64,000 bases of DNA, taken from assembly GCA_910587325.1 (NCBI GenBank), contig CAJUKB010000006.1, positions 831-64,830 of the forward strand. Direction: 5' to 3'. The notes beneath the pieces are model-generated. The model saw only the letters and a program-made list of their open reading frames with translations. It ran no database searches and was not told the DNA's origin. Source of the stretch: an uncultured Bacilli bacterium (GTDB lineage: Bacteria > Bacillota_I > Bacilli_A > RF39 > UBA660). Below, piece by piece: positions 21,819 through 46,907 of this stretch (positions are counted from its first letter, which is position 1; every line of letters starts with the position of its first letter). Made by a program: the position numbers and the translations under genes.

Positions 21819-21880
21819 AAATACACTTCCTTAATTTTATATTATAGCATAAAAAAAGAAGCTAGTCATTGCAACTAGCT

Positions 21881-24438: not shown

Positions 24439-24462
24439 ACTTTTCCTCCCATAATAAAAGAA

Positions 24463-25487: not shown

Positions 25488-25552
25488 CTCCTCTCTTTCT
25501 AATAAGACACAAAAAAACAGATCAATTTACGATCTGTCCCTTTTTATATTTA

Positions 25553-26719: not shown

Positions 26720-26747
26720 ATAGTTAAAACTAATACCATTATATCAC

Positions 26748-28915: not shown

Positions 28916-28937
28916 TTTATCACCTTTCTTTTTGGTT

Positions 28938-29155
28938 TTAATTGGTTTAGTTTAGACCATAGTTTTCAAAATTATTATTACTAATAATTTAAGAGCATAA
29001 GAAGTTGATATCAACACTTTAAATAAAGACTTATAAAATAAGACTTTAGTGTGATATCAAACATATTTTGCACTTGCAAAATGAATCCATTACTATGGTC
29101 TAAACTAATAAATAATCCCTTATATAATAAGGATTTTTTATGGTCTAAACTATGG
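28938..29155. promoter_or_regulatory. Candidate oriT / control region upstream of the relaxase operon: three copies of GGTCTAAACTA plus palindromes
   Basis: TAGTTTAGACCATAGTT (28938-54) is the reverse complement of ACTATGGTCTAAACTA (29091-106). A third, direct copy lies at 29139-55. A hairpin AATCCCTTATATAATAAGGATT lies between. The palindrome GTTGATATCAAC and TGATATCA lie upstream. Confidence 0.4.
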
Positions 29156-30088: not shown

Positions 30089-30124
30089 TTATCTACCTCC
30101 ATAAAAAAAGATAGATTCCTCTAT

Positions 30125-30904
30125 CTATTTACTTGATATATCATTTGATATAATTTTCTCAACAATCTTATTATTATCAATATCTATAATAATAAGATCA
30201 ATTATCTGAATTAGATATTTTTGTACAGTATTAAAATCTTTTACAATTCTGTATACAGAATCAGGCATTACTCGTAAAAAAGTGTTTTCTGATAAAGATG
30301 TTATTGCAATAGAGTATCGATGTGTCATTTGATTTCTTAATTCACAAATATAATCATGGACACCTTTATTTATGTCTGAATCTGTAATATCAAACTTTTC
30401 ACTGATATAAGATAATATTTCTTGAAAGTTCATTTCATTGCAACCTTTATTTGATAGCTCTGTAATAATATTTTTATAACTAACCTTTTTAACATCCTTG
30501 CCTAAATTATAATATAAATTTAATAATTGGGCCAAAGAATCCCATAATATAATTTCTCTAAATAAAGCATTTTCAAAATAATAACAAGCATTATTCTCAT
30601 TTTCACTTAAGATGTTATTCATTGGATTAAATGTATTATAATTAACTTTTTGATATTCATCTATACATTTTTCAATAGAGATTCTTGTTTTATTAGACAG
30701 ATCATTTATTGATTCTATAAAATGATTGTACTTAAAAAATTTCTTAATATCACTATCCACTGTATTTCCAATTATTCCTGCAATATATTTACCATTTTCA
30801 AAGTTTATATGCAAATTTTTCAAATTTATTTTATATTCGTTTAATAAAACTAAGAGTTCTTTTTTATCTTTTTCATTTATCAACGGTTTAAAATCTTTCT
30901 TCAT
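30125..30904 (-). CDS. Hypothetical protein with possible HEPN-type Rx4H motif (Abi-like)
   Basis: 259 aa, mostly helical. ELRNQMTHRYS fits the HEPN Rx4-6H motif. No other motifs. Confidence 0.4.
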   Translation of the reverse strand: MKKDFKPLINEKDKKELLVLLNEYKINLKNLHINFENGKYIAGIIGNTVDSDIKKFFKYNHFIESINDLSNKTRISIEKCIDEYQKVNYNTFNPMNNILSENENNACYYFENALFREIILWDSLAQLLNLYYNLGKDVKKVSYKNIITELSNKGCNEMNFQEILSYISEKFDITDSDINKGVHDYICELRNQMTHRYSIAITSLSENTFLRVMPDSVYRIVKDFNTVQKYLIQIIDLIIIDIDNNKIVEKIISNDISSK

Positions 30905-30979
30905 CTCTTCAATCCTTTCTATTTTAATGGGATTTAATTGCCAATTATAATTTTACCACAAATCTATTGCTAATATCTA

Positions 30980-33442: not shown

Positions 33443-33720
33443 TCAACATCATCTCCAATCTTTGAGTAGGAATATTCCCTACATCTAAATAAATATCGAA
33501 ACAATAAAGCTACTACTTTATACATTCGATTCTTTTTTGAAACCTTAACTGGTAACATTAAAAAGACACATATTGTCAGATATACTAACGATTGTAGCTT
33601 TAAGTTAGTAAATGAAAATATAAGTAGAAAAGAAAACAACATAGGTAATCCTATGTATAAATCATTCATTTCAACATATTTTCCTAATGTTTTTTTAATA
33701 CTTGAAACCGTAATATACAT
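33409..33720 (-). CDS. Small membrane protein (VirB3/TcpE-like)
   Basis: 103 aa, two hydrophobic helices. Overlaps the virB4 start. Confidence 0.4.
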   Translation of the reverse strand: MYITVSSIKKTLGKYVEMNDLYIGLPMLFSFLLIFSFTNLKLQSLVYLTICVFLMLPVKVSKKNRMYKVVALLFRYLFRCREYSYSKIGDDVDWKDKLKMKRF

Positions 33721-35126
33721 TATTCATCTCTCCCTCTATATCTTCTTCTATACATACTTCTTGTTGGTATTACACTGTTAACTGCTTGAGCCATTGAATT
33801 AGCACCTGCATTCATCATTCCAGATCCAAATCTAGAGAGTTTACTAGAAGTTGGTTTTCCATCTTTACCCATTGGATGATTTCTGACACAAGATGATGCT
33901 TGAAGATAATCTCCAACCATTTTAAGATTACTTCCAATTCCTCCACTTTCATAATTACCACCCATTTTAGATCCAAAAGATGATACAGCTTGTCCTACTT
34001 TTCCTAATGCAGAATTTCCAACACTACCAGCTTTTGATGTTCCTTTGGCAATTGCTCCAGCTCCCATTAATCCTGCTCCTACAGTTGCAAGACCTCCTGT
34101 TGTTGCTACAGCACCCATGCTGTGTCCAAATCCCATCATAGCCATAAGTTGCTCTCTACCAGAGTTAGCTGATACATTTCCACCTATGAATCTATTTACA
34201 ACTTGTGATCCAGTAAGTAAGAATGAGCCACAGCCAATATACATAATAGATTTAATAATTATATCCTTAAACGAATTAGTAAAGAATGTTGTTTCATTTA
34301 TTTGACCCATTACTATTGCTGTAAGAGATATAATAAGCATTATTACTGCACCTTGTAACATTAGTGATACTAATTGTTGTACCACTGCACTTCTTCTTTC
34401 TTTATTTCCTACTGATGTAGCAAAAATAATAGGACTAATCACAAATAAGAATAAAAATTCAATTTGCCTTCTAGCCAACATCATTCCACAAAAGAACAGT
34501 GAGTATAAAAAGAAACCACCTACAATAACAGCTAGAATCCAATCAATCTCATATTTATAATCTTTTTCATCTGGTAAAATCCATCTAGAAGATGTTACAT
34601 ATTTATCATTGTACATTTTCTTCCCATTAAAATTACCATTAGATATATTTTTAGGAATATCTTCTTTTTTAAATTCATCAGAATCTTTATAACCATCTGA
34701 ATAATCAATAAACATAGTAAGCATAGAGTCAGATAATGTTACATTATTACTTGTAAAAATATTAGAAGTAAATCCTGCAAGTTTTATAGAAAAGGTCGAT
34801 GCTTGAACAAATAAAAATGTACTCATAATAATAAGTACACCACACTTTGCTATTTCTTTTACTATACCTTCAGAGCTTAACCCTTCATCTGGATCAATAA
34901 TCTTTTTTACAAATCGAGTTATTGCAAATAAGCCTAATAAAGTAACAGCTATGGCAATTACTCCAGTTTGAAATTTACTAAAATTGTTATCTCCAGATAC
35001 TGAATTAATAATATCAAAAGCATTTAATCCTTTTAAAATATCAAATAAAGAATCAATCAGTGAAAATATAAAGTGAACTAAACTCCAACCTAATGTTCTT
35101 AACAAATCTAATGCTTTTAATAACAT
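33720..35126 (-). CDS. Polytopic membrane protein, VirB6/TrbL-like, with a Gly/Ser-rich C-terminal tail
   Basis: 468 aa, ~6 TM helices, C-terminal low-complexity G/A/S region. Position within the T4SS operon. Confidence 0.5.
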   Translation of the reverse strand: MLLKALDLLRTLGWSLVHFIFSLIDSLFDILKGLNAFDIINSVSGDNNFSKFQTGVIAIAVTLLGLFAITRFVKKIIDPDEGLSSEGIVKEIAKCGVLIIMSTFLFVQASTFSIKLAGFTSNIFTSNNVTLSDSMLTMFIDYSDGYKDSDEFKKEDIPKNISNGNFNGKKMYNDKYVTSSRWILPDEKDYKYEIDWILAVIVGGFFLYSLFFCGMMLARRQIEFLFLFVISPIIFATSVGNKERRSAVVQQLVSLMLQGAVIMLIISLTAIVMGQINETTFFTNSFKDIIIKSIMYIGCGSFLLTGSQVVNRFIGGNVSANSGREQLMAMMGFGHSMGAVATTGGLATVGAGLMGAGAIAKGTSKAGSVGNSALGKVGQAVSSFGSKMGGNYESGGIGSNLKMVGDYLQASSCVRNHPMGKDGKPTSSKLSRFGSGMMNAGANSMAQAVNSVIPTRSMYRRRYRGRDE

Positions 35127-35137
35127 TTAACCACCTC

Positions 35138-35416
35138 CTAGAACAAATCTATGATTAGATTGACTATTGAAATTGCAAGAATAATACCAACAATACCAAA
35201 CATAGTTTGAATTATTCTTTGTTTTACTCTAGGTTTTTGATCCACATCTACTACTGCATATAAAATAAAGCCAATAATTAATGATACACCTGCTGCTGCA
35301 ATTCCAATTCTTAAAGCCCATGTAGAAAATGTTTGTATAGCTTTGATAATTGAATCAACATTATATCCGCCACCTTCAAGATGTTCTATTTTTAATAAAT
35401 TAACCAATTTATTCAT
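35138..35416 (-). CDS. Small membrane protein (putative VirB2-like pilin/TcpD-like)
   Basis: 92 aa, two hydrophobic helices (IGIAAAGVSLIIGFILYAVV / FGIVGIILAISIVNLII). Confidence 0.35.
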   Translation of the reverse strand: MNKLVNLLKIEHLEGGGYNVDSIIKAIQTFSTWALRIGIAAAGVSLIIGFILYAVVDVDQKPRVKQRIIQTMFGIVGIILAISIVNLIIDLF

Positions 35417-35530
35417 TCTATCTCCTCCTTAAAAAAATAAATGAAAAAGAACAAAGAAGGTGTGTTAAAATAACTATATGAGTTATTTGCTGACAGGCAT
35501 TAACTCTTTTTCTTTGCTCTTTTCTCATAA

Positions 35531-35899
35531 TTACATATCTAAATCATCATCTGATTTTTCATTATCAGAATCTTTTTCTTTAGCTGTTGATAAAAAAGTC
35601 ACTTTTTCAGCTACAATTTGAGTTGATTTTTTCTTTTCACCATCAGCATTTTCATAAATATTAGTTTCAACTTTGCCTTTTACTCCAACTAAATCACCTT
35701 TTTTACAGTATTCTGCTGTATTAGAAGCAACTCCACCCCAAAGGACACAATCAACAAAATCTGTTTCATATTCTCCTTCAGCATTCTTGTAGCTTCTTGG
35801 AACTGCTAAAGTAACAAAAGCTCTTTCTTTACCTGATTCTGTTTTTTCAACAGTAGGTTCTTGAACTAATCTTCCGACAATAACAACTTGATTCAACAT
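35531..35899 (-). CDS. ssb: Single-stranded DNA-binding protein
   Basis: OB-fold N-terminus MLNQVVIVGRLVQEPTV...RAFVTLAV. Acidic C-terminal tail ...SDDDLDM. Confidence 0.8.
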   Translation of the reverse strand: MLNQVVIVGRLVQEPTVEKTESGKERAFVTLAVPRSYKNAEGEYETDFVDCVLWGGVASNTAEYCKKGDLVGVKGKVETNIYENADGEKKKSTQIVAEKVTFLSTAKEKDSDNEKSDDDLDM

Positions 35900-35986
35900 T
35901 ATTTCACCTCCTTGTCTTTTTGAATTTTAATATTTTATCTTTGTATACCTATAAAACCACCACCTTTCATGTGAAAAAAATAAGGC

Positions 35987-36208
35987 TCATTTGCCTCTTT
36001 CATCTGCATCACATAGTTGCACAATTGAATCCTCTATTTTTTCCCATAAAGTATCTAGATAGTCATAACACTTTTGAAAATTTTTAAATTCTTTAGAATC
36101 TAAATATTCCTTGAATGAATCCATATCAGATAAAACTAATCCAATATGTTCTTGAAATTCACTCATTGCCTCGACTTCTAACATTTTTAATTCTTCAAGC
36201 TTCTTCAC
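35987..36208 (-). CDS. Hypothetical protein
   Basis: 73-aa acidic ORF. Confidence 0.3.
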   Translation of the reverse strand: MKKLEELKMLEVEAMSEFQEHIGLVLSDMDSFKEYLDSKEFKNFQKCYDYLDTLWEKIEDSIVQLCDADERGK

Positions 36209-36966
36209 AAATCAATCTCCTCCATTTCATAATCATCTAACCAATCAAATTTATCATCAGAGTAAAGATCTTCTGAATAATTTTTAAATTTATTAATATT
36301 AGAAATAATTGAACTTTTAAAATAACCATATTTATTTTTAATTTCATTATCATTCTCATCAATAAAATTTCTTTCCTTTACTCTTTTGATAATATAATGT
36401 GTTATAGTTAATAAATCTTTATAAGTATTACCTTCATCAATAAGTTTTTCAAACAAATCATCAAATAAAAAAGAACTAGAATCATCTTCATTAATATAAT
36501 TAAGATTTATTAGCTCTTTAGTTAAAATATTGTGTTCAATTTTTGTTTTATCTATTTTATCTTTTTTATTATTGATATTTATTTGTGTGCAGTTATCGGT
36601 GTTCCGATCATCGGTATGCCAATTATTGATATCTGGATAATTTCTTGTTTTTAGCCATTCTGAATAAGGTAAATAATAAACCATATATTTATATTTAAAA
36701 TATCCTTTTTCATCTCTATACTGCTTTATTTGAACATATTCTGCCTTTTTTAATTCATTTAAAGTTGTCCTAATAGCATATTTACCTTCTTGTGATATTT
36801 TTTCAAGTCCACTTATAGAGTAATCCCAATCTTTAGACATAGATAACATCATAGAAAGCAAACCTTTAGCTTTAAATGATAAATTAGAATCCCTTAAATG
36901 ATAGTTTGACATAACAGTATATCCAGTAATACCAAAAACCTCAAAATCTCTTGTACTATCATTCAT
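36205..36966 (-). CDS. Possible RepA_N-like replication initiator / DNA-binding protein
   Basis: The N-terminal 90 aa (YHLRDSNLSFKAKGLLSMMLSMSKDWDYSISGLEKISQEGKYAIRTTLNELKKAEYV) resemble the winged-helix RepA_N domain pattern. The rest is low complexity. Confidence 0.35.
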   Translation of the reverse strand: MNDSTRDFEVFGITGYTVMSNYHLRDSNLSFKAKGLLSMMLSMSKDWDYSISGLEKISQEGKYAIRTTLNELKKAEYVQIKQYRDEKGYFKYKYMVYYLPYSEWLKTRNYPDINNWHTDDRNTDNCTQININNKKDKIDKTKIEHNILTKELINLNYINEDDSSSFLFDDLFEKLIDEGNTYKDLLTITHYIIKRVKERNFIDENDNEIKNKYGYFKSSIISNINKFKNYSEDLYSDDKFDWLDDYEMEEIDL

Positions 36967-36992
36967 ATTTCATTCCTCCAAAATAAAAAGAG

Positions 36993-37484
36993 CTATTGCT
37001 CTTCATCTTCATAATCAACTTCTACATAATACTTTATATCTTCATAATCACGATGGCTACCATCAGATGGATGGATTATTTCATCTAATCTGAAATATAT
37101 TTCCTTAATAATATCAGTAAGAACATCTTTATTAGACCAATAATTATACTCATGTAATAACATAGCATATGAATATAAATGCATATCATTATTCCAAACT
37201 TGTTTAATTAGTCTATTCCGATCAATGTATTCTAATGGCTTTAAATTATAATCATTTTTAGATACATCTAAAGTAGACTCATGATATGGTACTCCTTCTG
37301 AAAAACAAAATAACCAATCAATAAGTTCATTTACTTCTTTACTTGTACTATCAAATTCTTGCATAAGATAAGACATTCTATTAATAAATATAATTCTTTT
37401 TTTATTTGTTTTATCTACTTTTCCTTTAGAATAATCAAAACACCTTTCCATAATCCACCTCTTACATTTAATTATATCAGTCAT
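36993..37484 (-). CDS. Hypothetical protein
   Basis: 163-aa ORF, no motifs. Confidence 0.35.
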   Translation of the reverse strand: MTDIIKCKRWIMERCFDYSKGKVDKTNKKRIIFINRMSYLMQEFDSTSKEVNELIDWLFCFSEGVPYHESTLDVSKNDYNLKPLEYIDRNRLIKQVWNNDMHLYSYAMLLHEYNYWSNKDVLTDIIKEIYFRLDEIIHPSDGSHRDYEDIKYYVEVDYEDEEQ

Positions 37485-37513
37485 ATTGTATAAAGTTAAC
37501 TTTGTGAAAAATA

Positions 37514-37834
37514 TTACTGTTTTATAATATCTTCAATTTTTAGTGGTGATTCACTCGTTATCTTTAACTCGTATGTTTCTTCTAATATCTTCTTTACTAA
37601 TTCAAAATCACAGTCAGCATTTGTAAATTGTGATAAATCATCTATAGCTGTACTTACTTGATTAGAAAACGATTGTTGCCACATTGCATTACCTCTAAAA
37701 TATACTGCTATATGAAAAGCAATATATTGATTAAAAAAACTGTCTTTAACATAATTAGTTACCATTTCTTCACAAGGAGCAACAACTCTGAAAAATTCCT
37801 CATCTGATACTTCATCCATATCCGTCCTAATCAT
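37514..37834 (-). CDS. Hypothetical protein
   Basis: 106-aa ORF, no motifs. Confidence 0.35.
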   Translation of the reverse strand: MIRTDMDEVSDEEFFRVVAPCEEMVTNYVKDSFFNQYIAFHIAVYFRGNAMWQQSFSNQVSTAIDDLSQFTNADCDFELVKKILEETYELKITSESPLKIEDIIKQ

Positions 37835-37897
37835 ATTGCACCTCCATGATTTTAATTATAAAAAATATTATTTTAAAAGAAAAAGGTGCTACAAACT

Positions 37898-38518
37898 TTA
37901 AGACTCTAATTCACAAATTATTACTATTTGCTTTTTAGTATTATGTCTACAAGTAATTAATGTAAGTGTGCTTTTGTTTTTATCTCTAATTATTTCTGCT
38001 TTACCAGTTTTCTCTATATCATAGATATCAGTTACTTTATATGAATATACTTTATTATTATAATTAATATAAACCATGTCTTCTAAAGTTAACTTATCTA
38101 GGTTTCTAAAATAAGATATTCTTGCACTACCAGAATGTCCAGCCAAAATGACATTTCCATTTTTTTGATCAGGCATCGAAGATCCTTTTACGATTTCTAC
38201 ATTGTAATTAATATTGTTTAAATAACTATTTGGATTTACTAGACCTCTTTCTAAATTAATTTTAGGGATTTTAAGTACAGCAATATATTCTATTTTTGTT
38301 TGCTCTTTCACTTCTTCTTTTTCTTGAGTATCTTCAGTAAAATTTTCAATATTGACCACTGTTTCATTTTTGTAAAAATCATTTAAAGCATTATCCTCTA
38401 TATCTTTAATGTTTTTATTAGATAAGTAATCGTAACTAATTAAAGAGACTCCTATTAAAAATAGGAAAGAGCCGATTACTATAAACCAGCTCTTATTTTT
38501 TATTTTTCTTTTTACCAT
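37898..38518 (-). CDS. Sortase (cysteine transpeptidase)
   Basis: N-terminal TM anchor. His motif ILAGHSG. Catalytic TLxTC motif (STLTLITCRHN). Its start overlaps the adhesin stop by 26 nt. Confidence 0.8.
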   Translation of the reverse strand: MVKRKIKNKSWFIVIGSFLFLIGVSLISYDYLSNKNIKDIEDNALNDFYKNETVVNIENFTEDTQEKEEVKEQTKIEYIAVLKIPKINLERGLVNPNSYLNNINYNVEIVKGSSMPDQKNGNVILAGHSGSARISYFRNLDKLTLEDMVYINYNNKVYSYKVTDIYDIEKTGKAEIIRDKNKSTLTLITCRHNTKKQIVIICELES

Positions 38519-41207
38519 ATATAATAATACCTGTTCCTAAAGCAATCAAACCAATTCCACTAATTAAAAGTTCTTTATAATCAGATGCATCGGTATTTGG
38601 TACTTCTACAATTTGATGGTCTTTCATAACAGATTTAACTATTTCTCCATCTTCTTTAATTTCAAAATACATTTTTTCTGGATTTATCTCATAGCCTTCT
38701 GGTGCTTCTTTTTCTAAAATATAATACTTACCATACTTTAATTCTTTAATAGTAATCTTTCCATTTTCATCAGTTCTTCCACTAAATACAAGTTCATCGT
38801 TTTCGTTATAGATTTCTATTAGTGTATTTGGTAATGGATTATCATTTGAAAAATCTAATTTTGAAAATTCTAATGTCCCAGTAATGTCCTCATCTTTCAT
38901 AGTTGATTTAACTATTTCTCCATTTTCTTTAATTTCAAAGTACATTTTTTCTTCATTAATTTTATAACCCTCTGGTGCTTCTTTTTCCAAAATATAGTAT
39001 TTTCCTACAGGTAATTCATCAATAACTATTTTTCCTTCAATATCTGTTTTACCAGAGAATATTAGCTCATCAGTTTCAGTATAAATCTCAATTAAAGTGT
39101 TAGGTAATGCCTTTGATTCTGATAAATCAGTCTTAGTAAATTCTAATTTACCCTTCTTTAAATAATTAACTTTGCTTAATGTTTCATATACTATTGGAGT
39201 TTTATTATCTTTTTCAGTTAATTTAAACTCATGTCTAGTTATATCTAATACATAATTATCTTTAGTTTTCACTTCAATCATATAGTAAGATCCTAAAGGT
39301 AATTTTTTACTTATAGCATAACCATCTTTATTTGTAGTAATAGTATCTACTAATTGATCTTTTTTATAATATAAAGTATTGCCATCAGATGATAATATAT
39401 CTTCTTTAGCATAGATATTAAATGTTACTTTATCTAAAGGAATAAATTCATATTCAATTGTATTATCTACAATAACTACCTTCTCACCTTTTTTATTAAC
39501 TTCAATTTGTCCTTTTATTGGAGTATCTTTAAATGTTACCTCAACAATTGCTCCATAAGTAGTATAAGTATAATGAGTATCATTGCCTAAAGTGAATTCT
39601 ACTCCATCAGCATTTATTAGATATCCTTTTGGTGATGTAATTTCTACAATTTTATAATGTCCTGCTTCTAATTTTAAGAAAGTCATGGATTTACCTGTTT
39701 CATCAGTTACAAATTTATCATATACTTTTCCACCTACATATTGAGATACATATTGATTAGTATCTGTATTTAATATTCTAAATGTGGTATTAGGTAATGC
39801 AATAGATTTACCTGTCTCAGAATCTACCTTTTTTATTTGAACATAAGCAGATAATTTATTATTAAGAATATTATAATAGTGTTCTTTTGGGCTATCGTAA
39901 TTTACTGTTATATAGAAATCATGAATTTTTTCAAATCCAACAGTTGTATTTACTTGATGAAATTTCCAAGTACCATACGCTAAATCAAAAGAAGCATAGC
40001 CACTTTTATCAGTAGTAACAGTTTTTAGTACTCTTCCATCTGGATAAGATATTTCAAATTTGATTCCCTGTTCAGCATTTAAGAAAGTAGTATTTCCATC
40101 TACATACTCATATTGTTTTAAGATGCTTATATGATTTTCAACTACATCTTCAGTAACATTCATTGAAACTTCTGCTCTACCTTTAATATCAAAATTATAT
40201 TTAGTTGTATCTAAATAATAACCTTCTGATGGACTTATCTCTTGTAAGTAATAAGATCCATAACTCAATACATTGTTACTTTTAGCATAACCATTTTCAT
40301 CAGTAGTAATTCTAGTTACTTCAGTACCATCAGTTCTATATACACCATATACAGCTCCCTTTAAAGTTGCTTGTCCTTGTGCTTTCTCAGTAATACTATC
40401 TGCTTTTACCATATCTACACTTCCTAAATAAGCCTTTACTTTAAAACTTGCTACAACTGGATCTACAGTACCTGGTACAATCATATTTTGAATTTCATTT
40501 CCAGAATAAATTTTATATTCACTATCGTATGGCATTATTTTAGTAAGTCTAACATTTATATCACCATTTATTGTTGGAGTAATATTTAATTTATTACCTT
40601 CTACAGAATAATTTGCTCCTGTAACTGAAACATTATAATTACTTAATACATTATTTGTATCAGTAAGAGTAAATGTTTCTCCAACTTGATATGTATAATT
40701 TCCACCATTAAATGATGGTTTAACATAATGATTAGCAATTAATCTTTCTATCTCTCTTTCTTCATTAGAAACATCAAATCTAGTTCCAGCTCCCCATCTT
40801 TCTGTAGAAAAATCTGTATGACCATTATGTCCTACAATCGTACTCCATAAAAGACCTTGTGTAGCTGCTCTATATTTTAATGTATTATGTCCTGGATATG
40901 TATAACCATAATATGCTAGTAAAAGAACCCTTTCTTTAATATCATTTGGTAGTCCTGTGGCTTCATAACTTGTTTGAGGATAAGTTGTACCTTCAGGAAC
41001 ATTTGGTTCAATACAGTAAGCTATTTTCCCATCCATAGTATACAATTGCCAGTACCATGAAGAATTATTACCAACATCATTAAATCTATTATAATAATAT
41101 CCAGATTTTTCTTTTACTAAAGTTGCAGCATGTACATTAGTTGTAGTAAATCCACAAGCTAACAATAATGCTACAGCAAATAAAATTCTCTTAATGTTTT
41201 TTTGCAT
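38493..41207 (-). CDS. ICE-encoded surface adhesin: signal peptide, thioester domain (YCIEP...TQGLLW), multiple Cna-B repeats, VPNTD sorting-like signal + TM + KKKNKK
   Basis: 904 aa. Paralogous to the 416..2527 protein, with clear C-terminal identity (LPN(T/V)LIEIYNE...TDENGKI). Thioester Cys/Gln signature. Probable substrate of the adjacent sortase. Confidence 0.75.
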   Translation of the reverse strand: MQKNIKRILFAVALLLACGFTTTNVHAATLVKEKSGYYYNRFNDVGNNSSWYWQLYTMDGKIAYCIEPNVPEGTTYPQTSYEATGLPNDIKERVLLLAYYGYTYPGHNTLKYRAATQGLLWSTIVGHNGHTDFSTERWGAGTRFDVSNEEREIERLIANHYVKPSFNGGNYTYQVGETFTLTDTNNVLSNYNVSVTGANYSVEGNKLNITPTINGDINVRLTKIMPYDSEYKIYSGNEIQNMIVPGTVDPVVASFKVKAYLGSVDMVKADSITEKAQGQATLKGAVYGVYRTDGTEVTRITTDENGYAKSNNVLSYGSYYLQEISPSEGYYLDTTKYNFDIKGRAEVSMNVTEDVVENHISILKQYEYVDGNTTFLNAEQGIKFEISYPDGRVLKTVTTDKSGYASFDLAYGTWKFHQVNTTVGFEKIHDFYITVNYDSPKEHYYNILNNKLSAYVQIKKVDSETGKSIALPNTTFRILNTDTNQYVSQYVGGKVYDKFVTDETGKSMTFLKLEAGHYKIVEITSPKGYLINADGVEFTLGNDTHYTYTTYGAIVEVTFKDTPIKGQIEVNKKGEKVVIVDNTIEYEFIPLDKVTFNIYAKEDILSSDGNTLYYKKDQLVDTITTNKDGYAISKKLPLGSYYMIEVKTKDNYVLDITRHEFKLTEKDNKTPIVYETLSKVNYLKKGKLEFTKTDLSESKALPNTLIEIYTETDELIFSGKTDIEGKIVIDELPVGKYYILEKEAPEGYKINEEKMYFEIKENGEIVKSTMKDEDITGTLEFSKLDFSNDNPLPNTLIEIYNENDELVFSGRTDENGKITIKELKYGKYYILEKEAPEGYEINPEKMYFEIKEDGEIVKSVMKDHQIVEVPNTDASDYKELLISGIGLIALGTGIIIYGKKKNKK

Positions 41208-41259
41208 TTTTTCCTCCTATATTAATTCATAAAAAAACACCATTTAAGGTGCTAAAAAA

Positions 41260-41913
41260 CTATTTGTATTTTTTAAAATCAATTTGTGTTTTATATCTAT
41301 TGCAATTATCTGAATTACAAAAAATATTTAAATAATACCCTAGGACCTTTCCAGTTGTTGAAGTTACTTCATAGCATCTATAGTAATTGATATCTACTGT
41401 ATTTAAAAATGCTATTTCTTCTCCAGCTGATAAGCACTTATCTTGGGATGATGTATCTATATTCCCATTATGAATTGAATAAAAGAAACTATTAGTATCT
41501 ACTATATCATCTCTTACTTCTTCAACCTTAATTTTAGGTTGTTCTGTTATTTTAATTTCCTGGTTACTTGTTTTCTTATCTTCAACTACTTTGGGAACTT
41601 CTATGACATTAGTGTTACTAACATTATCATTCTCCATATTGTTTTTATTAGGAACACTATCATTAGAATCATTATTCTGAATAATGACATGATCTCCCTT
41701 AGTATCTTCAATAATATTTTCTTTATTAAGCTCACCTGATTCAACTTCTTTCTTTTCTTCTTTTTCTTTACCAACATCTACAATCGCACTATTATCCTTT
41801 TCTAGTTCTATCGAACTTTTTTTATAATAATGTGTTGTAAAAAGAAAAGATATTGTAAAGAATATTACGAAAGTAAAAAACAGTTTTTTCATCCTTTTCA
41901 CCTCATAAAACAT
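41260..41913 (-). CDS. Membrane-anchored hypothetical protein
   Basis: 217 aa. N-terminal TM, then a low-complexity N/D/E/K-rich region. Confidence 0.4.
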   Translation of the reverse strand: MFYEVKRMKKLFFTFVIFFTISFLFTTHYYKKSSIELEKDNSAIVDVGKEKEEKKEVESGELNKENIIEDTKGDHVIIQNNDSNDSVPNKNNMENDNVSNTNVIEVPKVVEDKKTSNQEIKITEQPKIKVEEVRDDIVDTNSFFYSIHNGNIDTSSQDKCLSAGEEIAFLNTVDINYYRCYEVTSTTGKVLGYYLNIFCNSDNCNRYKTQIDFKKYK

Positions 41914-41945
41914 TATATATTGAAGTTATAAGTAATTCTAAGGTG

Positions 41946-42878
41946 CTACATATCTAAATCATAGGCATCACCCCTTTCAAGTTTTTTATCTTTAGAATAA
42001 TTAATTAAAGCATTTATAATGTACTGTTCTATATACCTTTTATCCTTTTTTAATAATTCAGAAGGGAGTACATCTTCTATTCTTTTCTTATTAAATGAAA
42101 TTTGTTCTTTTTGATTTCCTTTTTCTTCACTTAATATTTCATCTAAAATTTCTTCATTTAATTTATTTTGTTCTTCTAACTTTCTAATTTCAATAGCTTG
42201 AGCATGAGAAGGAGTTGCTTGATTGTAATCAATGGCATCTGCTACTAACTGTTGATTAGCTGTTGATAAAAAAGATAATTCTACAGCTGGTTTTATACCT
42301 ATTGTTAATGGTTCATTTCTATTAAGAACAGTTTTATCTACATACTCTAATAACTCTGGAATCAAATAAGTAAGTCTAATATATCTTTTTATATTCGTAG
42401 CACTTTCTCCAAATTCTAAGCCTATTTTTTCTACAGAATTTAACTTTAGTTCCTGAGGGTCCAAAGTATCAATTTTTTTGCCTTGATGTTTCATTGCCTC
42501 TAATTTCATCTTGTAAGCAAATGCTTTTTCACTTGGTAAAACTAATTCTCTTTGCAAATTAGAATCTACCATTTCAATAATAGCTTGATCATTAGTTAAT
42601 TCCTTTACTACAGCAGGTATTGTTTTTTCATTATTTTGTTTCATAGCTAACAATCGTCTATGCCCAGAAATCATTTCATATCTACCATCTTCTTTTTTTC
42701 TTAAAACTACTGGATTTAATAATCCATTATTTTTAATACTTTGCCTTAATTCAAAAAAACTTAAATCCTCATTTACTTTAAATGGATGATTTTTAAAACT
42801 GTCTATTAAAGATATATCTATATCTTTTATTTGATTTTGACCCTTTGCCATAAGTTCCTCCTTCCTATTTTTGTCCAC
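41946..42878 (-). CDS. ParB/Srx-like nuclease-domain protein (ICE partition or transfer accessory)
   Basis: N-terminal ParB box LLNPVVLRKKEDGRYEMISGHRRLLA (GHRR arginine finger region). Helical C-terminal part. Confidence 0.7.
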   Translation of the reverse strand: MDKNRKEELMAKGQNQIKDIDISLIDSFKNHPFKVNEDLSFFELRQSIKNNGLLNPVVLRKKEDGRYEMISGHRRLLAMKQNNEKTIPAVVKELTNDQAIIEMVDSNLQRELVLPSEKAFAYKMKLEAMKHQGKKIDTLDPQELKLNSVEKIGLEFGESATNIKRYIRLTYLIPELLEYVDKTVLNRNEPLTIGIKPAVELSFLSTANQQLVADAIDYNQATPSHAQAIEIRKLEEQNKLNEEILDEILSEEKGNQKEQISFNKKRIEDVLPSELLKKDKRYIEQYIINALINYSKDKKLERGDAYDLDM

Positions 42879-42909
42879 AAAAAAACACCAATTAAGGTGC
42901 TAACATTTT

Positions 42910-43512
42910 TTATTTTGTTTCAATTTGTCTTTTTATAGCATTATATCTATTGTGCCACCATGTTGCATTATCATTTGCCTCATCTATTTCTGCTTGTAAA
43001 TTTAAAATATAATCTAAAAATTCATAGCATTCACTATGCTCTAAATAAAAATCACAATCTTCCTTAACACTTCTTTTTAATTCTTCTAAAATCTCTAATT
43101 GCCTCTTTGCATATAAGTCAATTTCATCAATATCAGATTCTGTTGTTCTTTCATTCTCATATAATTCATAATAATTAAATTTACATTTTTTCCAAATATC
43201 TTCGATTTCATATTCTATTTCATCTAAATCCATACATTCTATTGCATATATTTTAGTTTTAACCCAAAATTTATCTTTTTGTGTTACTAAAATAAATTCA
43301 TAATTATAACTATCATTTAGTTCATATTCATATACATCAATATAATATTTGACTCCTTTATTATCTTTGATTTTCTTTTGAAAAAATCTATTTGCATATT
43401 GTTCTGTTTTTGGAACATCTGATTCCTTATATCCTGCATTTATCAATACTTTATCTGTCATAAATATCTTCCTCCTATTTATTGTTTTTATAAACAATGT
43501 CTGAAAATTCAA
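42910..43512 (-). CDS. Hypothetical protein
   Basis: 200-aa ORF, acidic, no motifs. Confidence 0.35.
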   Translation of the reverse strand: MNFQTLFIKTINRRKIFMTDKVLINAGYKESDVPKTEQYANRFFQKKIKDNKGVKYYIDVYEYELNDSYNYEFILVTQKDKFWVKTKIYAIECMDLDEIEYEIEDIWKKCKFNYYELYENERTTESDIDEIDLYAKRQLEILEELKRSVKEDCDFYLEHSECYEFLDYILNLQAEIDEANDNATWWHNRYNAIKRQIETK

Positions 43513-43894
43513 AAATTCTTTTGCAACTATGACAAGCTATTGCAGTTATATCACATCCAATTATTGATTCTCCATCTCCTTTTATTAGAGATATACTAAG
43601 TGACTTACAAATTGGACATTTTATACTATTTTGAGATAGCACCTCACTTTGCTTTAAATTACTTTTTATGATCTCAAAGTCTTCCATTGTAATTTTGGCT
43701 AATTTTCTTATATAAGATAATTCAATATAATCATTAGGATTTCCAATTCTTTTCATATATTCAGTTCCACCATCTACAGCTACCGATTTACAACTACAAT
43801 ATTTTAAATCATTAACATCAGTGGATTCTATAATATCCTCACATTTTTTACATTTAATTTTATTATGTTTAATTTTAAATACTATTTCCTGCAT
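43475..43894 (-). CDS. Zinc-ribbon hypothetical protein
   Basis: 139 aa with four CxxC pairs (CKKCED, CSCKS, CPICKS, CHSCKR). Confidence 0.4.
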   Translation of the reverse strand: MQEIVFKIKHNKIKCKKCEDIIESTDVNDLKYCSCKSVAVDGGTEYMKRIGNPNDYIELSYIRKLAKITMEDFEIIKSNLKQSEVLSQNSIKCPICKSLSISLIKGDGESIIGCDITAIACHSCKRIFEFSDIVYKNNK

Positions 43895-44004
43895 AATTTC
43901 TCTCCATACATTGCATTATACATAATTTATAAATTACTTAAAAAGGTGCAAAATAAAAACTAGCTACATTAAATATAACTAGCATATCCTAATATTGGTC
44001 AAAA

Positions 44005-44030
44005 CTATACATAAGGAAACCTTTCACCTC
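44005..44030. repeat. Right ICE junction (attR-like): 12-bp arm CTATACATAAGG, 8-nt spacer, CACCTC crossover repeat
   Basis: Mirror image of the left junction. The arm is the exact reverse complement of 10198-10209. Confidence 0.6.
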
Positions 44031-44334
44031 CTGCATTTATATGATTAGACACAAGAATCACATCATTACCCTTTCCATAAAAACTCTGTGCTCTACCTGG
44101 TCTAACATCAGGAGATAAAGTTTCATCTGTAGTTCTTGTCATACTATTTTCGATTCCTAAATCATCCAAACGATTATGAATATATTCACTTATCTTTAAT
44201 GTATATTCTTTTTCTGTTATTCCATTTGCAATAGTCCCAGGATCAGTACCACCATGACCAGAATCTATTACCACTTTTTTTGTAGCTCTTATTGACATGT
44301 TTTTCACCTCTACTATAAAATATGTTAAAAGCAC
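44005..44334 (-). pseudogene. 5' fragment of the split cell-wall amidase gene (Amidase_3 N-terminal half)
   Basis: VIDSGHGGTDPG...ILVSNHINAGG is the N-terminal Amidase_3 signature. The ORF stops at a TAG inside the ICE arm directly after NAGG. Its continuation (GDGAEVIY...) lies at 10187 on the other side of the element. Confidence 0.75.
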
Positions 44335-44969: not shown

Positions 44970-46907
44970 ATGCGTAAGATTCGTTTTTTATTTAAATTTA
45001 GTATTTTTATGTTTGTAGCTTTTTTAATTGTAATGGTTGGTTTATATACCTATGCTTATTTTAGTCCTAAATTAGAACTTACAAGCATTGGACAAATGTA
45101 TATTTATGACAAAGATTCACAACTTGTTTATCAAGGAAGTGGTAGTAGTGAATGGGTAAACCTAGAGGATATCTCTCCTTATTTAATTGATGCCGTTATT
45201 AATGTTGAAGATAAAAATTTTTATAAACACCAAGGATTTGATTATTTACGTATTGCAAAAGCTATGCTATTAAATATAAAAAATAAAAGTATTGTACAAG
45301 GAGCTAGTACGATAAGCCAACAATATATTAAAAATATGTATTTGGATTTTGATCAAACATGGCGAAGAAAAATAGAAGAAGCATTCTTAACTTTAGAACT
45401 AGAAGTACATTACGATAAAGATGAAATATTGGAAGGGTACTTGAATACTATTAATTTTGGTGCAGGAAATTATGGTGTTCTAAATGCAAGCAAGTATTAC
45501 TTTAATAAAGATGCAAATGAACTTTCTCTAGAAGAAGCCATAATGCTTGCAGGTATTCCAAAAAATCCTAGTAACTATAATCCTGTCAACCATTATGATA
45601 AATGTATTGAGAGAGCAAAAATAGTTGCTTTATCTATGTATAATAATAATGTACTTGATGCAGAAACATATAACAATTTATTTAAAGAACCAATTGAAAT
45701 ATATGGAAAGCGAGAAACAAATAATTTGCAGATGTTAATGTATTATCAAGATGCGGTATTAAAAGAATTAGAAACATTACCTGGAATTCCTACTTCCTTA
45801 CTTGATTCGGGAAGTTTAAAAATCTATACAAGTTTGGATATGCTTGCCCAAACGAAATTAGAAAGTGAAATACTTGAAAATGTTACCGATGAAAATTTAC
45901 AAATAGCAAGTATTTTAGTTGACCCAGAAAGTGGGGCAGTAAGAGCATTAACAGGGGGAAAGAATTATGCAGAAAGTCAATTTAATCGTGCTTTACAAGC
46001 CAAAAGACAAGTAGGATCTACGATGAAACCATTTTTGTATTATGCAGCTTTAGAAAATGGAATGACGTCTTCTACCACTTTTGCAAGTGAACCTACCAAT
46101 TTTGTTTTTTCTAATAACCAAGTGTATAGTCCTAATAATTTTAATAATATTTATGCCAATAAAGACATTACTATGGCGGCTGCTCTTGCCTATTCTGATA
46201 ATATTTATGCTGTAAAAACACATTTATTTTTAGGAGAAGAAACACTTGTAGAAACCGCAGAAAAGATGGGAATAACTGAAGAATTAACTCCTAATCCCTC
46301 TTTAGCCTTAGGGACAAGTGAAATGACAATGCTTAACTTTGCAAATGGTTATACGACACTCGCAAATGGAGGATATCTAACGGATAATTATTTTATAGAA
46401 AGAGTAGAGGACTTAAACGGACACGTATTGTATGAACATAAGAACAAGAAAAAAATGGTTTTAAATTCTAATTATGTTTATATATTAAATGAAATGTTAT
46501 CAAATACTAGTAATGCTAAATTTCAAAGTTATACTTCTCCAACTGCTTTATCGATTGCTTCTAAAATGAGTAAAAAATACGCCTTAAAAACAGGGACTAC
46601 CAAAACAGACTATTGGACGGTTGGCTATAATAAAGATGCACTTTTAATGATATGGCTTGGATATGATGATGCAAGTGAAATTGAGAGTGTTGCAAGTAGA
46701 TGGGCTAAGAATATTTGGGTGAATACGATTGAAGATTATTTAAAAGAGAAAGAGGATAATTGGTATGAAACACCTAGTAATATTGTAGGAATACTACAAG
46801 ACCCTGTTACAGGTAAACCGGTAACAAATGGCAGCGCAAGTGTATTTTATTATGTGAAGGGTAGCGAAGGAAATTCTATAAGTCCTGATGTGAAGGCTAC
46901 GGAATAA
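44970..46907 (+). CDS. Class A penicillin-binding protein (glycosyltransferase GT51 + transpeptidase)
   Basis: N-terminal TM. GT51 motifs EDKNFYKHQG and GASTISQQYIKN. Transpeptidase motifs STMKP (SxxK), SDN (SxN) and KTGT. Confidence 0.85.
   Translation: MRKIRFLFKFSIFMFVAFLIVMVGLYTYAYFSPKLELTSIGQMYIYDKDSQLVYQGSGSSEWVNLEDISPYLIDAVINVEDKNFYKHQGFDYLRIAKAMLLNIKNKSIVQGASTISQQYIKNMYLDFDQTWRRKIEEAFLTLELEVHYDKDEILEGYLNTINFGAGNYGVLNASKYYFNKDANELSLEEAIMLAGIPKNPSNYNPVNHYDKCIERAKIVALSMYNNNVLDAETYNNLFKEPIEIYGKRETNNLQMLMYYQDAVLKELETLPGIPTSLLDSGSLKIYTSLDMLAQTKLESEILENVTDENLQIASILVDPESGAVRALTGGKNYAESQFNRALQAKRQVGSTMKPFLYYAALENGMTSSTTFASEPTNFVFSNNQVYSPNNFNNIYANKDITMAAALAYSDNIYAVKTHLFLGEETLVETAEKMGITEELTPNPSLALGTSEMTMLNFANGYTTLANGGYLTDNYFIERVEDLNGHVLYEHKNKKKMVLNSNYVYILNEMLSNTSNAKFQSYTSPTALSIASKMSKKYALKTGTTKTDYWTVGYNKDALLMIWLGYDDASEIESVASRWAKNIWVNTIEDYLKEKEDNWYETPSNIVGILQDPVTGKPVTNGSASVFYYVKGSEGNSISPDVKATE

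Follow-up and report, generated by a model that had tools for sequence, protein, structure and literature searches.

The window analysed here, a stretch of DNA of 64,000 nucleotides, contains an integrative conjugative element (ICE) which carries a gene for a predicted thioester-domain adhesin followed by a gene for a sortase-fold protein. A preliminary description had read this module as ICE-encoded, with a 904-aa adhesin overlapped by the sortase gene over 26 nt. Both points were confirmed: the open reading frames lie at 38493..41207 and 37898..38518 and share 38493..38518, conjugation genes are present, the ends of the element are exact and its empty sites occur in metagenomes. The main features of the locus are as follows.

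10190..44030, minus strand: ICE of about 33.8 kb carrying the adhesin–sortase module, with exact ends and a split target gene
41260..41913, minus strand: gene of a small membrane-anchored protein of 217 aa, directly upstream of the adhesin gene, with a C-terminal Cys-containing domain conserved in relatives
38493..41207, minus strand: adhesin gene, 904 aa, an open reading frame with Pfam TED, TED_2 and six SpaA matches
37898..38518, minus strand: gene of a sortase-fold transpeptidase of 206 aa with an N-terminal membrane helix (about residues 11–31), Pfam Sortase
38493..38518, minus strand: 26-nt overlap of the 3' end of the adhesin gene with the 5' end of the sortase gene; its A-rich lysine codons serve two reading frames

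The conjugative element and the place of the module in it

The element is flanked by the sequence GAGGTG at 10184–10189 and 44025–44030. Its target is an Amidase_3-LysM (cell-wall amidase) gene near oriC, and the chromosomal flanks carry dnaA, yidC, mnmE, mnmG and rsmG. When the two halves of the split gene were rejoined, they gave a contiguous Amidase_3 match over profile positions 1–172 of 174. A 23-mer representing the empty site was found in 11 metagenome contigs, and L092 links both flanks of the window with a 6-bp overlap. The gene content includes a serine recombinase, a type I restriction-modification (R-M) system, a type IV coupling protein, a relaxase-like protein, an M23 hydrolase, VirB4, a VirB6-like protein and SSB. 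As judged from its genes, the element can be classified as an ICE, having a recombinase, a coupling protein, genes of a type IV secretion system (T4SS) and defined ends, together with a weak relaxase match (23.5 against a cut-off of 24.6).

The adhesin gene is on the same strand as the transfer genes, between a ParB-like gene and the SSB and T4SS genes, and the same arrangement was seen in the related loci L084–L086. It heads a block of SSB, T4SS-pilin, VirB6-like, VirB4 and M23 genes, both here and in relatives that are only 60–63% identical, and its position is constant in relatives with different cargo; BLAST could detect synteny with T4SS genes in only about one third of the 6-kb flanks. 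The hosts of the relatives are all uncultured gut Bacilli known as metagenome-assembled genomes (MAGs). The 217-aa protein encoded upstream has no match in Pfam or NCBIfam. In 24 of 80 loci BLAST detected a homolog of it on the upstream side of the adhesin, and L084–L086 have an open reading frame of 220–241 aa at the same position. It may be a partner of the module.

The start codon of the sortase gene spans the Tyr897–Gly898 codons of the adhesin. Overlaps of 20–65 nt, always 2 mod 3, were found in 66 adhesin–sortase pairs (about 58 of the 64 complete related loci), and nearly all loci have a single substrate gene per sortase. It seems probable that the two genes are translationally coupled. 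One lineage has kept an adhesin with an EVPNTS signal while a sortase is absent within 6–10 kb, which means that a sortase in cis is not needed in every case.

A second, paralogous adhesin–sortase pair is located in the window at 1..2527, outside the ICE. No T4SS genes were found around it, over about 10 kb on one side and as far as the contig end on the other, so the module is not intrinsically tied to conjugation.

The thioester domain and the stalk

From the N- to the C-terminus the adhesin consists of a signal peptide, a class II thioester domain (TED), six SpaA/CnaB-type domains and a cell-wall sorting signal. The following features lie upstream of the sorting signal.

41127..41207, minus strand: Sec signal peptide, residues 1–27, with a hydrophobic N-terminus and an AxA-type site (...NVHA↓AT); the cleavage site is a predicted one
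40422..41126, minus strand: class II thioester domain, residues ~28–262, from phmmer and Foldseek
41013..41015, minus strand: codon of Cys65 in the YCIE motif (Y64-C65-I66-E67), the predicted thioester Cys, aligned with SaTIE Cys296
40845..40862, minus strand: TQGLLW, residues 116–121, an auxiliary TQxxΦW motif beside the thioester (role from PMC6194298)
40488..40490, minus strand: codon of Gln240 (I239-Q240-N-M-I), the predicted thioester-forming Gln, aligned with SaTIE Gln467 (chain Q218)
38610..40421, minus strand: six SpaA/CnaB-type stalk domains, residues ~263–866, Pfam SpaA in six stretches
Proposed isopeptide triads of stalk domains 1–6: K268/E323/N358; K364/?/N449-450; K460/E522/D560; K572/E645/N681; K692/E741/D772; K783/E832/D863

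The adhesin matched the Pfam models TED (PF08341; 29.0 bits, cut-off 22) and TED_2 (27.5 bits, cut-off 27) and, in the PDB, BaTIE (6fwv, E 5e-41) and SaTIE-TED (6fx6, E 6e-13). With phmmer, SaTIE-TED was aligned to residues 47–271 (E 1.2e-13). The AF2 model of the adhesin had a pLDDT of 83, falling below 50 at residues 13–26; its best Foldseek match was 6fwv (1.7e-27), and it was superposed on SaTIE-TED 6fx6 with a TM score of 0.75 and an rmsd of 3.6 Å over 249 columns. By this superposition the model agrees with the class II fold, a TED head with an inserted beta-sandwich (slipknot).

The preliminary description had pointed to a Cys…TQxxxW thioester signature. These motifs are indeed there, but the Gln expected to form the bond, Gln240, had been missed. 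According to Miller et al. (PMC6194298), TQxxΦW is an auxiliary motif in helix α-2 of class II TEDs and does not provide the bond-forming Gln. We predict that Cys65 pairs with Gln240 and not with Gln117 of TQGLLW, because Cys296 and Gln467 of SaTIE align with Cys65 and Gln240, and because Gln240 is invariant, as are C65, Q117 and W121, among 25 homologs with 60–81% identity. The [YFL]-C-Φ-ζ motif of class II TEDs is present as Y64-C65-I66-E67, and IQNMI fits the Φ-Q-ζ-Φ-Φ motif (PMC6194298). The spacing from Cys65 to Gln240 is 175 residues; in the solved structures it is 171 (SaTIE), 195 (BaTIE) and 204 (EfmTIE86) (PMC6194298). Cys occurs in the adhesin only at residues 18 and 65, so C65 is the sole Cys of the mature protein. 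We infer that the Cys65–Gln240 thioester would be formed.

The run of Cna-B isopeptide-type repeats claimed earlier was also found, as six stretches matching SpaA (PF17802, E 6e-84). In BaTIE, K384/D464 align with K692/D772, and K475/N555 (with E524) align with K783/D863/E832. The triads of domains 1–4 are proposed by analogy, from Lys, Glu and Asn/Asp that are invariant and analogously placed, and Lys and Glu of the proposed triads are invariant in the A1 homologs. Isopeptide bonds may be expected in the stalk domains.

BaTIE, SaTIE and EfmTIE86 share with the adhesin a signal peptide, a class II TED, a CnaB stalk and a sortase signal, and their thioester and isopeptide residues align with those given above. 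All three have been described as sortase-attached (PMC8092201). They differ in having canonical LPxTG signals (LPATG in BaTIE; PMC6194298) and three stalk domains instead of six, and a link to a T4SS is not described for them (PMC6194298, PMC8092201).

The sorting signal and the paired sortase

The C-terminus of the adhesin and the active site of the sortase comprise these features.

38589..38603, minus strand: sorting pentapeptide V869-P-N-T-D873, read from the sequence, with a predicted cut after Thr872
38496..38570, minus strand: membrane-spanning segment (residues 880–898) and lysine-rich tail (899–904, KKKNKK), likewise read from the sequence
38135..38137, minus strand: codon of the catalytic His128 (LAGHSG), invariant in 152 of 152 sequences
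37949..37951, minus strand: codon of the catalytic Cys190 (TLITC), invariant
37928..37930, minus strand: codon of Gln197, at the canonical position of the catalytic Arg according to structure–sequence alignments

Compared with LPXTG, VPNTD keeps Pro and Thr, with Val in place of Leu and Asp in place of Gly, and it is followed by the hydrophobic helix and the Lys tail. Among 142 distinct tails of homologs, P4 is Val in 136, P3 is Pro and P1 is Thr in all 142, and P4' is Asp in 113; P1' varies (Gly 66, Asp 20, Leu 18, Ser 15, Phe 13), and 3–7 of the last 10 residues are Lys or Arg. The family motif is [E/K]-V-P-x-T-x-x-x-D, with V, P and T nearly invariant and a variable fifth residue, and VPNTD is one of its forms. 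The sorting-like signal noted in the preliminary description is there, and its last residue, described as non-canonical, is no peculiarity of this one gene: P1' is degenerate in the whole family. Conservation restricted to P4, P3, P1 and P4' is what would be expected if the motif is read by an enzyme.

The neighbouring protein is a sortase homolog by PF04203 (74.8 bits, cut-off 26.6) and TIGR01076 (66.6, cut-off 39.35), and C190 in TLITC is in place, as had been described; the lack of the canonical catalytic Arg had gone unnoticed. None of the NCBIfam class models (A–F) was reached, the scores and cut-offs being 73.3/140 for SrtD-LPxTATN, 70.9/160 for class C, 55.1/165 for class D, 48.9/160 for class E and 20.6/166 for class F. 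The best match in the PDB was CpSrtD (4d70). The core of the AF2 model had a pLDDT of 75–92; all its Foldseek matches were sortases (TM 0.5–0.75), and classes D, C, A and E were resembled equally well. In the alignments with CpSrtD, B. anthracis SrtA and L. monocytogenes SrtA (4d70, 2kw8, 5hu4), Gln197 takes the place of the catalytic Arg of strand β-8. Gln was found at this position in 61 of 62 sortases of the related loci and in all 150 representatives of clusters at 50% identity, and no column of the family alignment contains an invariant Arg. All characterised sortases carry Arg here, to our knowledge. The residue preceding the catalytic Cys (T189 in our sequence) is Thr or Ser, invariant or nearly so over the 150 clusters. 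The sortase is a member of a large, distinct clade in which His and Cys are invariant and Gln replaces the catalytic Arg. Gln197 matches the changed P4 (Val for Leu) and the relaxed P1' of the substrate signal. Sortase activity, cleavage after Thr872 and anchoring of the adhesin to the wall would be expected from these sequences.

We tentatively suggest, at somewhat less than even confidence, that the paired sortases make up a class not described before. It would be defined by a His-Cys-Gln site in place of the "ubiquitous" His-Cys-Arg, a [E/K]-V-P-x-T↓x-x-x-D signal with free P1', a strict coupling of one enzyme to one substrate by overlapping genes, and an occurrence chiefly on conjugative elements of uncultured gut Bacilli with reduced genomes.

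A proposed role in mating-pair formation

How mating pairs arise in Gram-positive conjugation is still poorly understood, and the only factors studied are, as far as we know, PrgB, TIEpLS20 and, indirectly, SrtD of pCW3. We consider it likely that the module is the surface-adhesion unit of the ICE, that is, a sortase-anchored covalent mating-pair adhesin of uncultured low-GC gut Bacilli. The adhesin would be exported by Sec, its class II TED would form the Cys65–Gln240 thioester by itself, and the six isopeptide-stabilised SpaA/CnaB domains would serve as a rigid stalk. The EVPNT↓D...D signal, the membrane helix and the Lys tail would retain the protein at the membrane, where the co-encoded sortase would cut after Thr872 and link the adhesin to a peptidoglycan precursor, using His128 and Cys190 with Thr189 as oxyanion helper; the would-be substrate of the sortase domain in this cleavage and transfer is the IVEVPNTDASDY peptide. 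The reactive thioester on the donor surface would then attack an amine of a partner cell, making a covalent bond by which mating pairs are stabilised for the neighbouring type IV secretion system. This role of the adhesin in conjugation is inferred.

Thioester adhesins in Gram-positive conjugation are already documented by two systems. In TIEpLS20, encoded by gene 34 of the Bacillus subtilis plasmid pLS20, the Cys68Ser substitution abolishes efficient conjugation in liquid mating (PMC8092201). Like the adhesin, TIEpLS20 has a class II TED and is the product of a gene placed early in the conjugation operon of a Gram-positive bacterium, and the VirB6-like protein of the ICE resembles p028 of pLS20, below the NCBIfam cut-off. 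The similarity of the two adhesins is only remote and limited to the TED (E 0.003), and TIEpLS20 lacks a sorting signal, no sortase is encoded by pLS20 and those of the host are not needed (PMC8092201), whereas the adhesin described here comes with a dedicated anchoring enzyme. The second system is CnaC with SrtD of pCW3, one of the conjugative Tcp plasmids of C. perfringens. CnaC is a large surface protein that combines TED motifs (CYCLN...CTQLAIW) with a long SpaA/CnaB stalk, and its gene lies beside that of the element's own sortase; its stalk and tail are homologous to those of the adhesin (E 1e-49, 29% identity), and its EIVKT↓G aligns with EVPNT↓D, although the motif lacks Pro. Efficient transfer reportedly depends on SrtD (Revitt-Mills 2021, as cited in PMC8225981). 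This sortase differs in having Arg at the canonical position (KQRLIL), and NCBI names it a class D enzyme; in addition, two small open reading frames separate cnaC and srtD, so there is no overlap, and DNA transfer is of the FtsK-like Tcp type and not VirD4/VirB4. PrgB, the aggregation substance of pCF10, is likewise a sortase-anchored adhesin of a conjugative element that promotes mating-pair formation, but its polymer adhesin domain is unrelated and binds LTA and eDNA non-covalently, its anchoring depends on sortase and a canonical LPxTG, and no element-encoded sortase is described for it (PMC12857230; PMC8092201).

The pair could instead be ICE cargo for colonisation of the animal gut, its thioester binding a protein of the host or of mucus in the way that SfbI binds fibrinogen, without taking part in DNA transfer. 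Characterised TEDs initially became known as adhesins that attach covalently to the host (PMC6194298; PMC8092201), the hosts are all gut MAGs, and the paralogous pair at 1..2527 is outside the ICE with no T4SS genes in its available flanks. Conjugative transposons (CTns) of C. difficile, also a gut Firmicute, often carry collagen-adhesin-like sortase substrates, and 023_CTn2 has an extra sortase of its own and non-canonical I/TPKTG motifs (PMC6814731). These were read as colonisation cargo, with no thioester domain or Arg-less sortase reported (PMC6814731; compared by description only). We regard this explanation as unlikely for the ICE copy, which is placed among the transfer genes on their strand, in a position kept where the cargo differs, while the recognisable cargo (type I R-M, kinase, HEPN) is located elsewhere in the ICE. 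Colonisation and mating roles are, moreover, not mutually exclusive.

It is still less probable that the sortase homolog, having no triad Arg, is dead or repurposed as a chaperone or retention factor, the adhesin being held by its C-terminal helix. The role of the sortase Arg is debated between oxyanion stabilisation and substrate positioning (PMC9520033). SrtA with Arg changed to Ala (R216A) shows no activity (PMC9520033), so an enzyme with Gln might be a weak one or have another function; the replacement of Arg by Gln throughout the clade, the family alignment devoid of an invariant Arg and the lineage that keeps the adhesin without a sortase would agree with loss of function. However, an evolved SrtA with Arg changed to Ser still carries out transpeptidation efficiently, its specificity being altered, and the Arg mainly positions the P4 and P3 backbone carbonyls of the substrate (PMC9520033), which makes a Gln enzyme plausible. 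The (near-)invariance of His128, Cys190 and the preceding Thr/Ser over 150 clusters is difficult to account for in a dead enzyme, the V-P-x-T of the substrate is almost invariant while its neighbours vary, and Gln, like Arg, can donate hydrogen bonds.

That the sortase is a class C-like pilin polymerase building the adhesin into a conjugative pilus-like fibre, or onto its tip, is very improbable, since the adhesin has no YPKN-type pilin motif, the cluster contains no gene for a shaft or basal pilin that bears a sorting signal, the sortase sequence has no lid-type DP[FWY] motif and nearly all loci have one substrate gene per sortase, even though class C models and structures score nearly as well as class D, a small T4SS_pilin-like open reading frame is nearby and Cpa, a tip adhesin of S. 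pyogenes that likewise has a TED, offers a precedent with its VPPTG-type signal.

With the module read as a mating-pair adhesin and its anchoring enzyme, the thioester-adhesin solution would be widespread on ICEs of abundant uncultured gut Bacilli. What is new here is the clade of sortases with Gln for Arg, which passes no NCBIfam class cut-off and overlaps its substrate gene. A natural Gln clade and a degenerate P1' bear directly on the debate over the sortase Arg (PMC9520033). If the sortase is active, the triad Arg would be a specificity element and not a catalytic necessity, and the enzyme and its signal would form a naturally orthogonal sortase–tag pair that could serve as a ligation tool. 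The exact borders of the ICE and its empty sites make the element tractable for synthetic reconstruction.

The gene pair and its conjugative element

The adhesin and sortase genes were found as two overlapping ORFs where the preliminary description had placed them, with 26 nt (38493..38518) common to both. Reading at the nucleotide level puts the sortase ATG across the Tyr897-Gly898 codons of the adhesin, and the A-rich overlap gives lysines in both frames (...YGKKKNKK-stop in the adhesin, MVKRKIKNK... in the sortase). The module is carried by an integrative conjugative element (ICE, about 33.8 kb, 10190..44030) whose genes all lie on the minus strand, from about 10.2 to 44.0 kb, with the module 3-6 kb from the right end.

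Features of the ICE
ICE, minus: DUF7695, ParB-like gene, 217-aa protein (41260..41913)
38493..41207, minus: adhesin ORF, 904 aa
37898..38518, minus: sortase ORF, 206 aa
ICE, minus: small ORFs, SSB
35138..35416, minus: T4SS_pilin-like ORF, 92 aa, beside the VirB6-like gene; weak T4SS_pilin match
33720..35126, minus: VirB6-like protein, DUF8208; below cut-off, similar to pLS20_p028 and Mycoplasma ICE proteins
ICE, minus: VirB4, Cthe_2314-like HEPN protein (30125..30904), M23 peptidase (hydrolase), in this order
ICE, minus: relaxase-like protein (weak match), adjoined by a eukaryotic-type Ser/Thr protein kinase (25553..26719)
ICE, minus: VirD4-type coupling protein
ICE, minus: complete type I restriction-modification system (HsdR/S/M, 15048..20885), then large serine recombinase

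A 109-aa ORF (44005..44334, minus strand) covers positions 1-78 of the Amidase_3 profile, and the frame upstream of a LysM ORF (9258..10001, minus strand) carries on the same domain, this half of the gene spanning 9258..~10189; the hexamer GAGGTG, at 10184-10189 and 44025-44030, is common to both halves. When the halves were joined at GAGGTG, the gene was intact, with a single contiguous Amidase_3 match (1-172 of 174, 100 bits) followed by LysM. The predicted empty-site 23-mer occurred exactly in 11 metagenome contigs, and in the empty-site contig L092 (8036-8714) the two flanks of the window meet, overlapping by 6 bp. It is clear that the ICE interrupts, at GAGGTG, a gene for an Amidase_3-LysM cell-wall hydrolase, and the rejoined match, the empty-site contigs and the L092 flanks firmly establish the module as ICE-encoded, as had been proposed. 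The 11 contigs belong to more distant relatives, their flanks being 66-71% identical in DNA.

The window is chromosomal and near the origin, with dnaA, yidC, mnmE, mnmG, rsmG and parB at 50-64 kb; its GC content is about 26%, and it was also matched in MAG GCA_950079075.1. Since a class A PBP gene (44970..46907) and the amidase-LysM gene, the insertion target, are present, the host, judging by its genes, makes peptidoglycan. The chromosomal ParB beside rsmG (50452..52338, minus strand) is unusually long at 628 aa, with ParB_N and HTH_ParB confined to the first ~212 residues. Just beyond the left end of the ICE lies an AbiGi/AbiGii abortive-infection pair (7025..9102, minus strand), of which AbiGii is seemingly split into two ORFs in another MAG (L087).

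Because BLAST of 6-kb flanks was only partly informative on T4SS synteny, Pfam-annotated contigs were used instead. A relative with a 63% identical adhesin has its genes in this order too (small protein, adhesin, sortase, SSB, ..., VirB6-like, VirB4, M23), and another has ParA/ParB-small protein-adhesin-sortase. The VirB6-like protein also resembles the MMCAP2_0566 and Mbov_0396 Mycoplasma ICE transmembrane families, below NCBIfam cut-offs; sequence likeness suggests a T4SS lineage common to pLS20, Mycoplasma ICEs and these gut Bacilli. The 217-aa protein directly upstream of the adhesin had no family match; a low-complexity linker joins its membrane helix, at the N-terminus, to a C-terminal domain that contains Cys. 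In relatives, where an ORF of 220-241 aa occupies the same position, identity over the C-terminal ~80 aa reaches 77%.

A class II thioester adhesin

All motifs named in the preliminary description were present: YC65IE, T116QGLLW121 and V869PNTD873 in the adhesin, the last followed by a hydrophobic helix and a KKKNKK tail, and TLITC190 in the sortase. The adhesin passed the cut-offs of Pfam TED (thioester domain; 29.0 bits against 22) and TED_2 (27.5 against 27), and also matched SpaA, with six 'prealbumin-like' domains (E 6e-84). At E<=1e-10 it had more than 5000 matches among database proteins, many of them ~900 aa and 60-81% identical, so the match is far beyond chance. Among PLSDB plasmids the module had no megablast match, relatives there being found at protein level only. 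The adhesin itself is a further member of the known thioester-adhesin type.

The thioester signature had been described as Cys...TQxxxW; the Cys65 part of this holds, and the predicted bond partner lies elsewhere. According to the structural work on class II TEDs, the Gln and Trp of a third motif, TQxxPhiW, adjoin the bond without forming it, and the thioester pairs in solved domains are Cys71/Gln266 (BaTIE), Cys296/Gln467 (SaTIE) and Cys88/Gln292 (EfmTIE86) (PMC6194298). Residues C47 and Q218 of the SaTIE-TED chain (Cys296 and Gln467) aligned with Cys65 and Gln240 of the adhesin (phmmer, E 1.2e-13), the latter within I-Q-N-M-I. C65, Q117, W121 and Q240 are invariant across 25 homologs, and Cys65 is the sole cysteine of the mature protein. 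Among PDB entries, the AlphaFold model (mean pLDDT 83) matched BaTIE best (E 1.7e-27), and its superposition on the SaTIE class II TED gave a TM of 0.75 and an rmsd of 3.6 A. On the grounds of the alignment, the invariance, the lone mature cysteine and the superposition, the predicted thioester is Cys65-Gln240, within a class II TED. A lipoprotein reading of 'LLAC18G' was rejected, that Cys not being conserved in the homolog consensus.

In the last two stalk domains, the BaTIE isopeptide pairs Lys384/Asp464 and Lys475/Asn555 (with Glu524) aligned with adhesin K692/D772 (E741) and K783/D863 (E832). The four earlier domains have an invariant Lys, Glu and Asn/Asp at analogous positions, from which we infer the isopeptide residues K268/E323/N358, K364/N449-450, K460/E522/D560 and K572/E645/N681 for domains 1-4. 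For the catalytic Glu in CnaB domain II of BaTIE, our count gave Glu433 ('YTYKET') against the published Glu443 (PMC6194298 / PMC8092201), a difference that could stem from a misprint in the papers or from a counting error here; for Glu524 of domain III our count agrees with the published number.

An arginine-less sortase and its putative sorting signal

What appears new in these sequences is a clade of sortases that lack the catalytic Arg and fall outside all class models, paired with an adhesin whose V-P-x-T signal is degenerate at P1'. The sortase ORF matched Pfam Sortase with 74.8 bits; in NCBIfam the generic sortase model passed and every class model was under its cut-off. In the alignment with the closest solved relative, C. 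perfringens SrtD (4d70), the catalytic Arg stands opposite Gln197. The same was found when a family profile (20 members, 38-61% identical) was aligned with three enzymes of two classes.

Sortase segments whose Arg (upper case R) aligned with Gln197
CpSrtD: ...TCtnrgkdRyiv
B. anthracis SrtA: ...TCvsvkdnskRyvv
L. monocytogenes SrtA: ...TCdkptettkRfva

Gln occupies this position in 61 of 62 sortases of the related loci and in 150/150 representatives of 50%-identity clusters from a library of 1.8 billion proteins; His128 and Cys190 are invariant among these representatives. No invariant Arg was found anywhere in the family alignment, and Lys170 in the beta6-beta7 loop is invariant. The AF2 model has adjacent strands at 184-190 and 196-204, matching beta7 and beta8; its confidence is moderate (pLDDT 67.8), the placement of Gln197 resting on secondary structure (strand 196-204). 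Foldseek returned sortases only, those of classes D, C, A and E at much the same distance.

In S. pyogenes SrtA structures the Arg bonds the P4 and P3 backbone carbonyls and the Thr preceding Cys makes the oxyanion hole; SrtA R216A is inactive, and an evolved SrtA with Arg to Ser is an efficient enzyme of new specificity (PMC9520033). Here T189 before Cys190 is conserved as Thr or Ser, and P4 of the substrate is Val instead of Leu. Given the role of the Arg in SrtA, the active Ser variant, the conserved T189 and the changed P4, the Gln-type sortase is probably active with altered recognition. An Abz/Dnp-flanked peptide, QIVEVPNTDASDYK, is proposed as substrate. A literature search for an Arg-less sortase clade, in an incomplete library, returned nothing relevant.

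Residues around the predicted cleavage site in 142 distinct C-terminal tails of adhesin homologs
P6: I/V
P5: E 95/142, K 25/142
P4: V 136/142
P3: P 142/142
P2: N 96/142, S 18/142, I 16/142
P1: T 142/142
P1': G 66/142, D 20/142, L 18/142, S 15/142, F 13/142
P4': D 113/142, E 9/142

In the homolog tails a membrane helix follows the motif, with 3-7 Lys/Arg among the final ten residues. From these counts 'VPNTD' is best read as one state of a family motif, [E/K]-V-P-x-T-x-x-x-D, with the fifth position free. The last residue of the sorting-like signal noted earlier is not peculiar to this gene, P1' varying family-wide. Such conservation would be expected if the enzyme reads P5-P1 and P4', not P1'. 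'CISGT' beta7-beta8 loops accompany L/F/Y at P1', and G and D have one loop in common; this pattern is confounded by phylogeny, so no co-evolution is claimed. A search for a 'VPNTG'-type signal with a sortase found nothing in coverage that leaves most subscription journals outside, which is weak evidence of novelty.

We took 80 related loci from reference genomes, every one from an uncultured gut or rumen MAG with a label such as Bacilli, Bacillales, 'Mollicutes', 'Tenericutes', Erysipelotrichaceae or CAG:884. Adhesin and sortase are tightly coupled: the sortase gene follows in ~58 of the 64 loci with a complete adhesin 3' end, and in all 66 pairs tabulated the genes overlap by 20-65 nt, always 2 mod 3. 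In five loci of one lineage (L038, L039, L050, L052, L053; tail EVPNTSSNTY) neither strand carried a sortase within 6 kb. Similarly, none was found on the Pfam-annotated contig L086 (P0099) of a related lineage (tail EVPNTSSNSY), where the adhesin is followed by SSB, T4SS pilin, VirB4 and M23; the sortase-less stretch is 6-10 kb. The EVPNTSSN[T/S]Y lineage retains the sorting signal, and SSB and T4SS genes come directly after its adhesin.

A probable mating-pair function and known systems

The preliminary description had suggested attachment to a mating partner or a host surface. Its reading of the module is supported overall, and from position and precedent we consider it fairly probable that the adhesin serves a mating-pair function. 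Gram-positive T4SSs use wall-anchored adhesins in place of pili (PMC12857230), and C. difficile CTns carry sortase substrates, one of them also a sortase (PMC6814731). A role in host colonisation is the main rival, and a second adhesin-sortase pair outside the ICE (1..2527, minus strand; Gln-type, VPNTG signal) lends it some weight. Beside this pair the flanking sequence examined held no T4SS genes; CmpB, DUF4153, Fic, a cell-wall hydrolase, AbiG, LysM and NT5C lie around it. This second adhesin (TED + SpaA, 690-703 aa) has YCIEP, TQALIW and GQNVLV and ends in KVPNTG, a TM segment and a K-rich tail. The sortase gene that follows overlaps the adhesin gene and is cut off by the edge of the window (full copy, L088:12051-12611); its product shares 50% identity with the ICE sortase. 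A pilus reading was rejected, as no YPKN-type pilin motif was found in the adhesin.

Returning to the mating-pair reading, TIEpLS20, a class II TED adhesin, is required for efficient mating in liquid, and its Cys68 is essential (PMC8092201). It works without any sortase, whereas the adhesin described here has a co-encoded one, and the similarity between the two is remote; at E 0.003 direct homology is marginal, so the adhesin was not filed as a TIEpLS20 ortholog. The best Bacillus plasmid match, H52, was dropped as a pLS20-type adhesin: it is a SpaA protein with a class D sortase, and no annotated T4SS genes were found within its 7-kb flanks.

The closest characterised analogue of the module is CnaC + SrtD of pCW3. 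Homology between CnaC and the adhesin extends over stalk and tail (E 1e-49), with EIVKT|G of CnaC standing opposite EVPNT|D. In contrast to the Gln-type sortase and overlapping genes described here, pCW3 SrtD carries the canonical Arg (TLITCINHAKQRLIL), and the cnaC and sortase genes do not overlap. Efficient transfer is reported to depend on SrtD (Revitt-Mills 2021, as cited in PMC8225981). CnaC (L083:593-4156), annotated only as 'SpaA isopeptide-forming pilin-related protein', has CYCLN and CTQLAIW, which we read as TED motifs, close to the N-terminus, and its tail consists of 'EIVKTGSS', a signal that lacks Pro, followed by a TM segment and KKRK.
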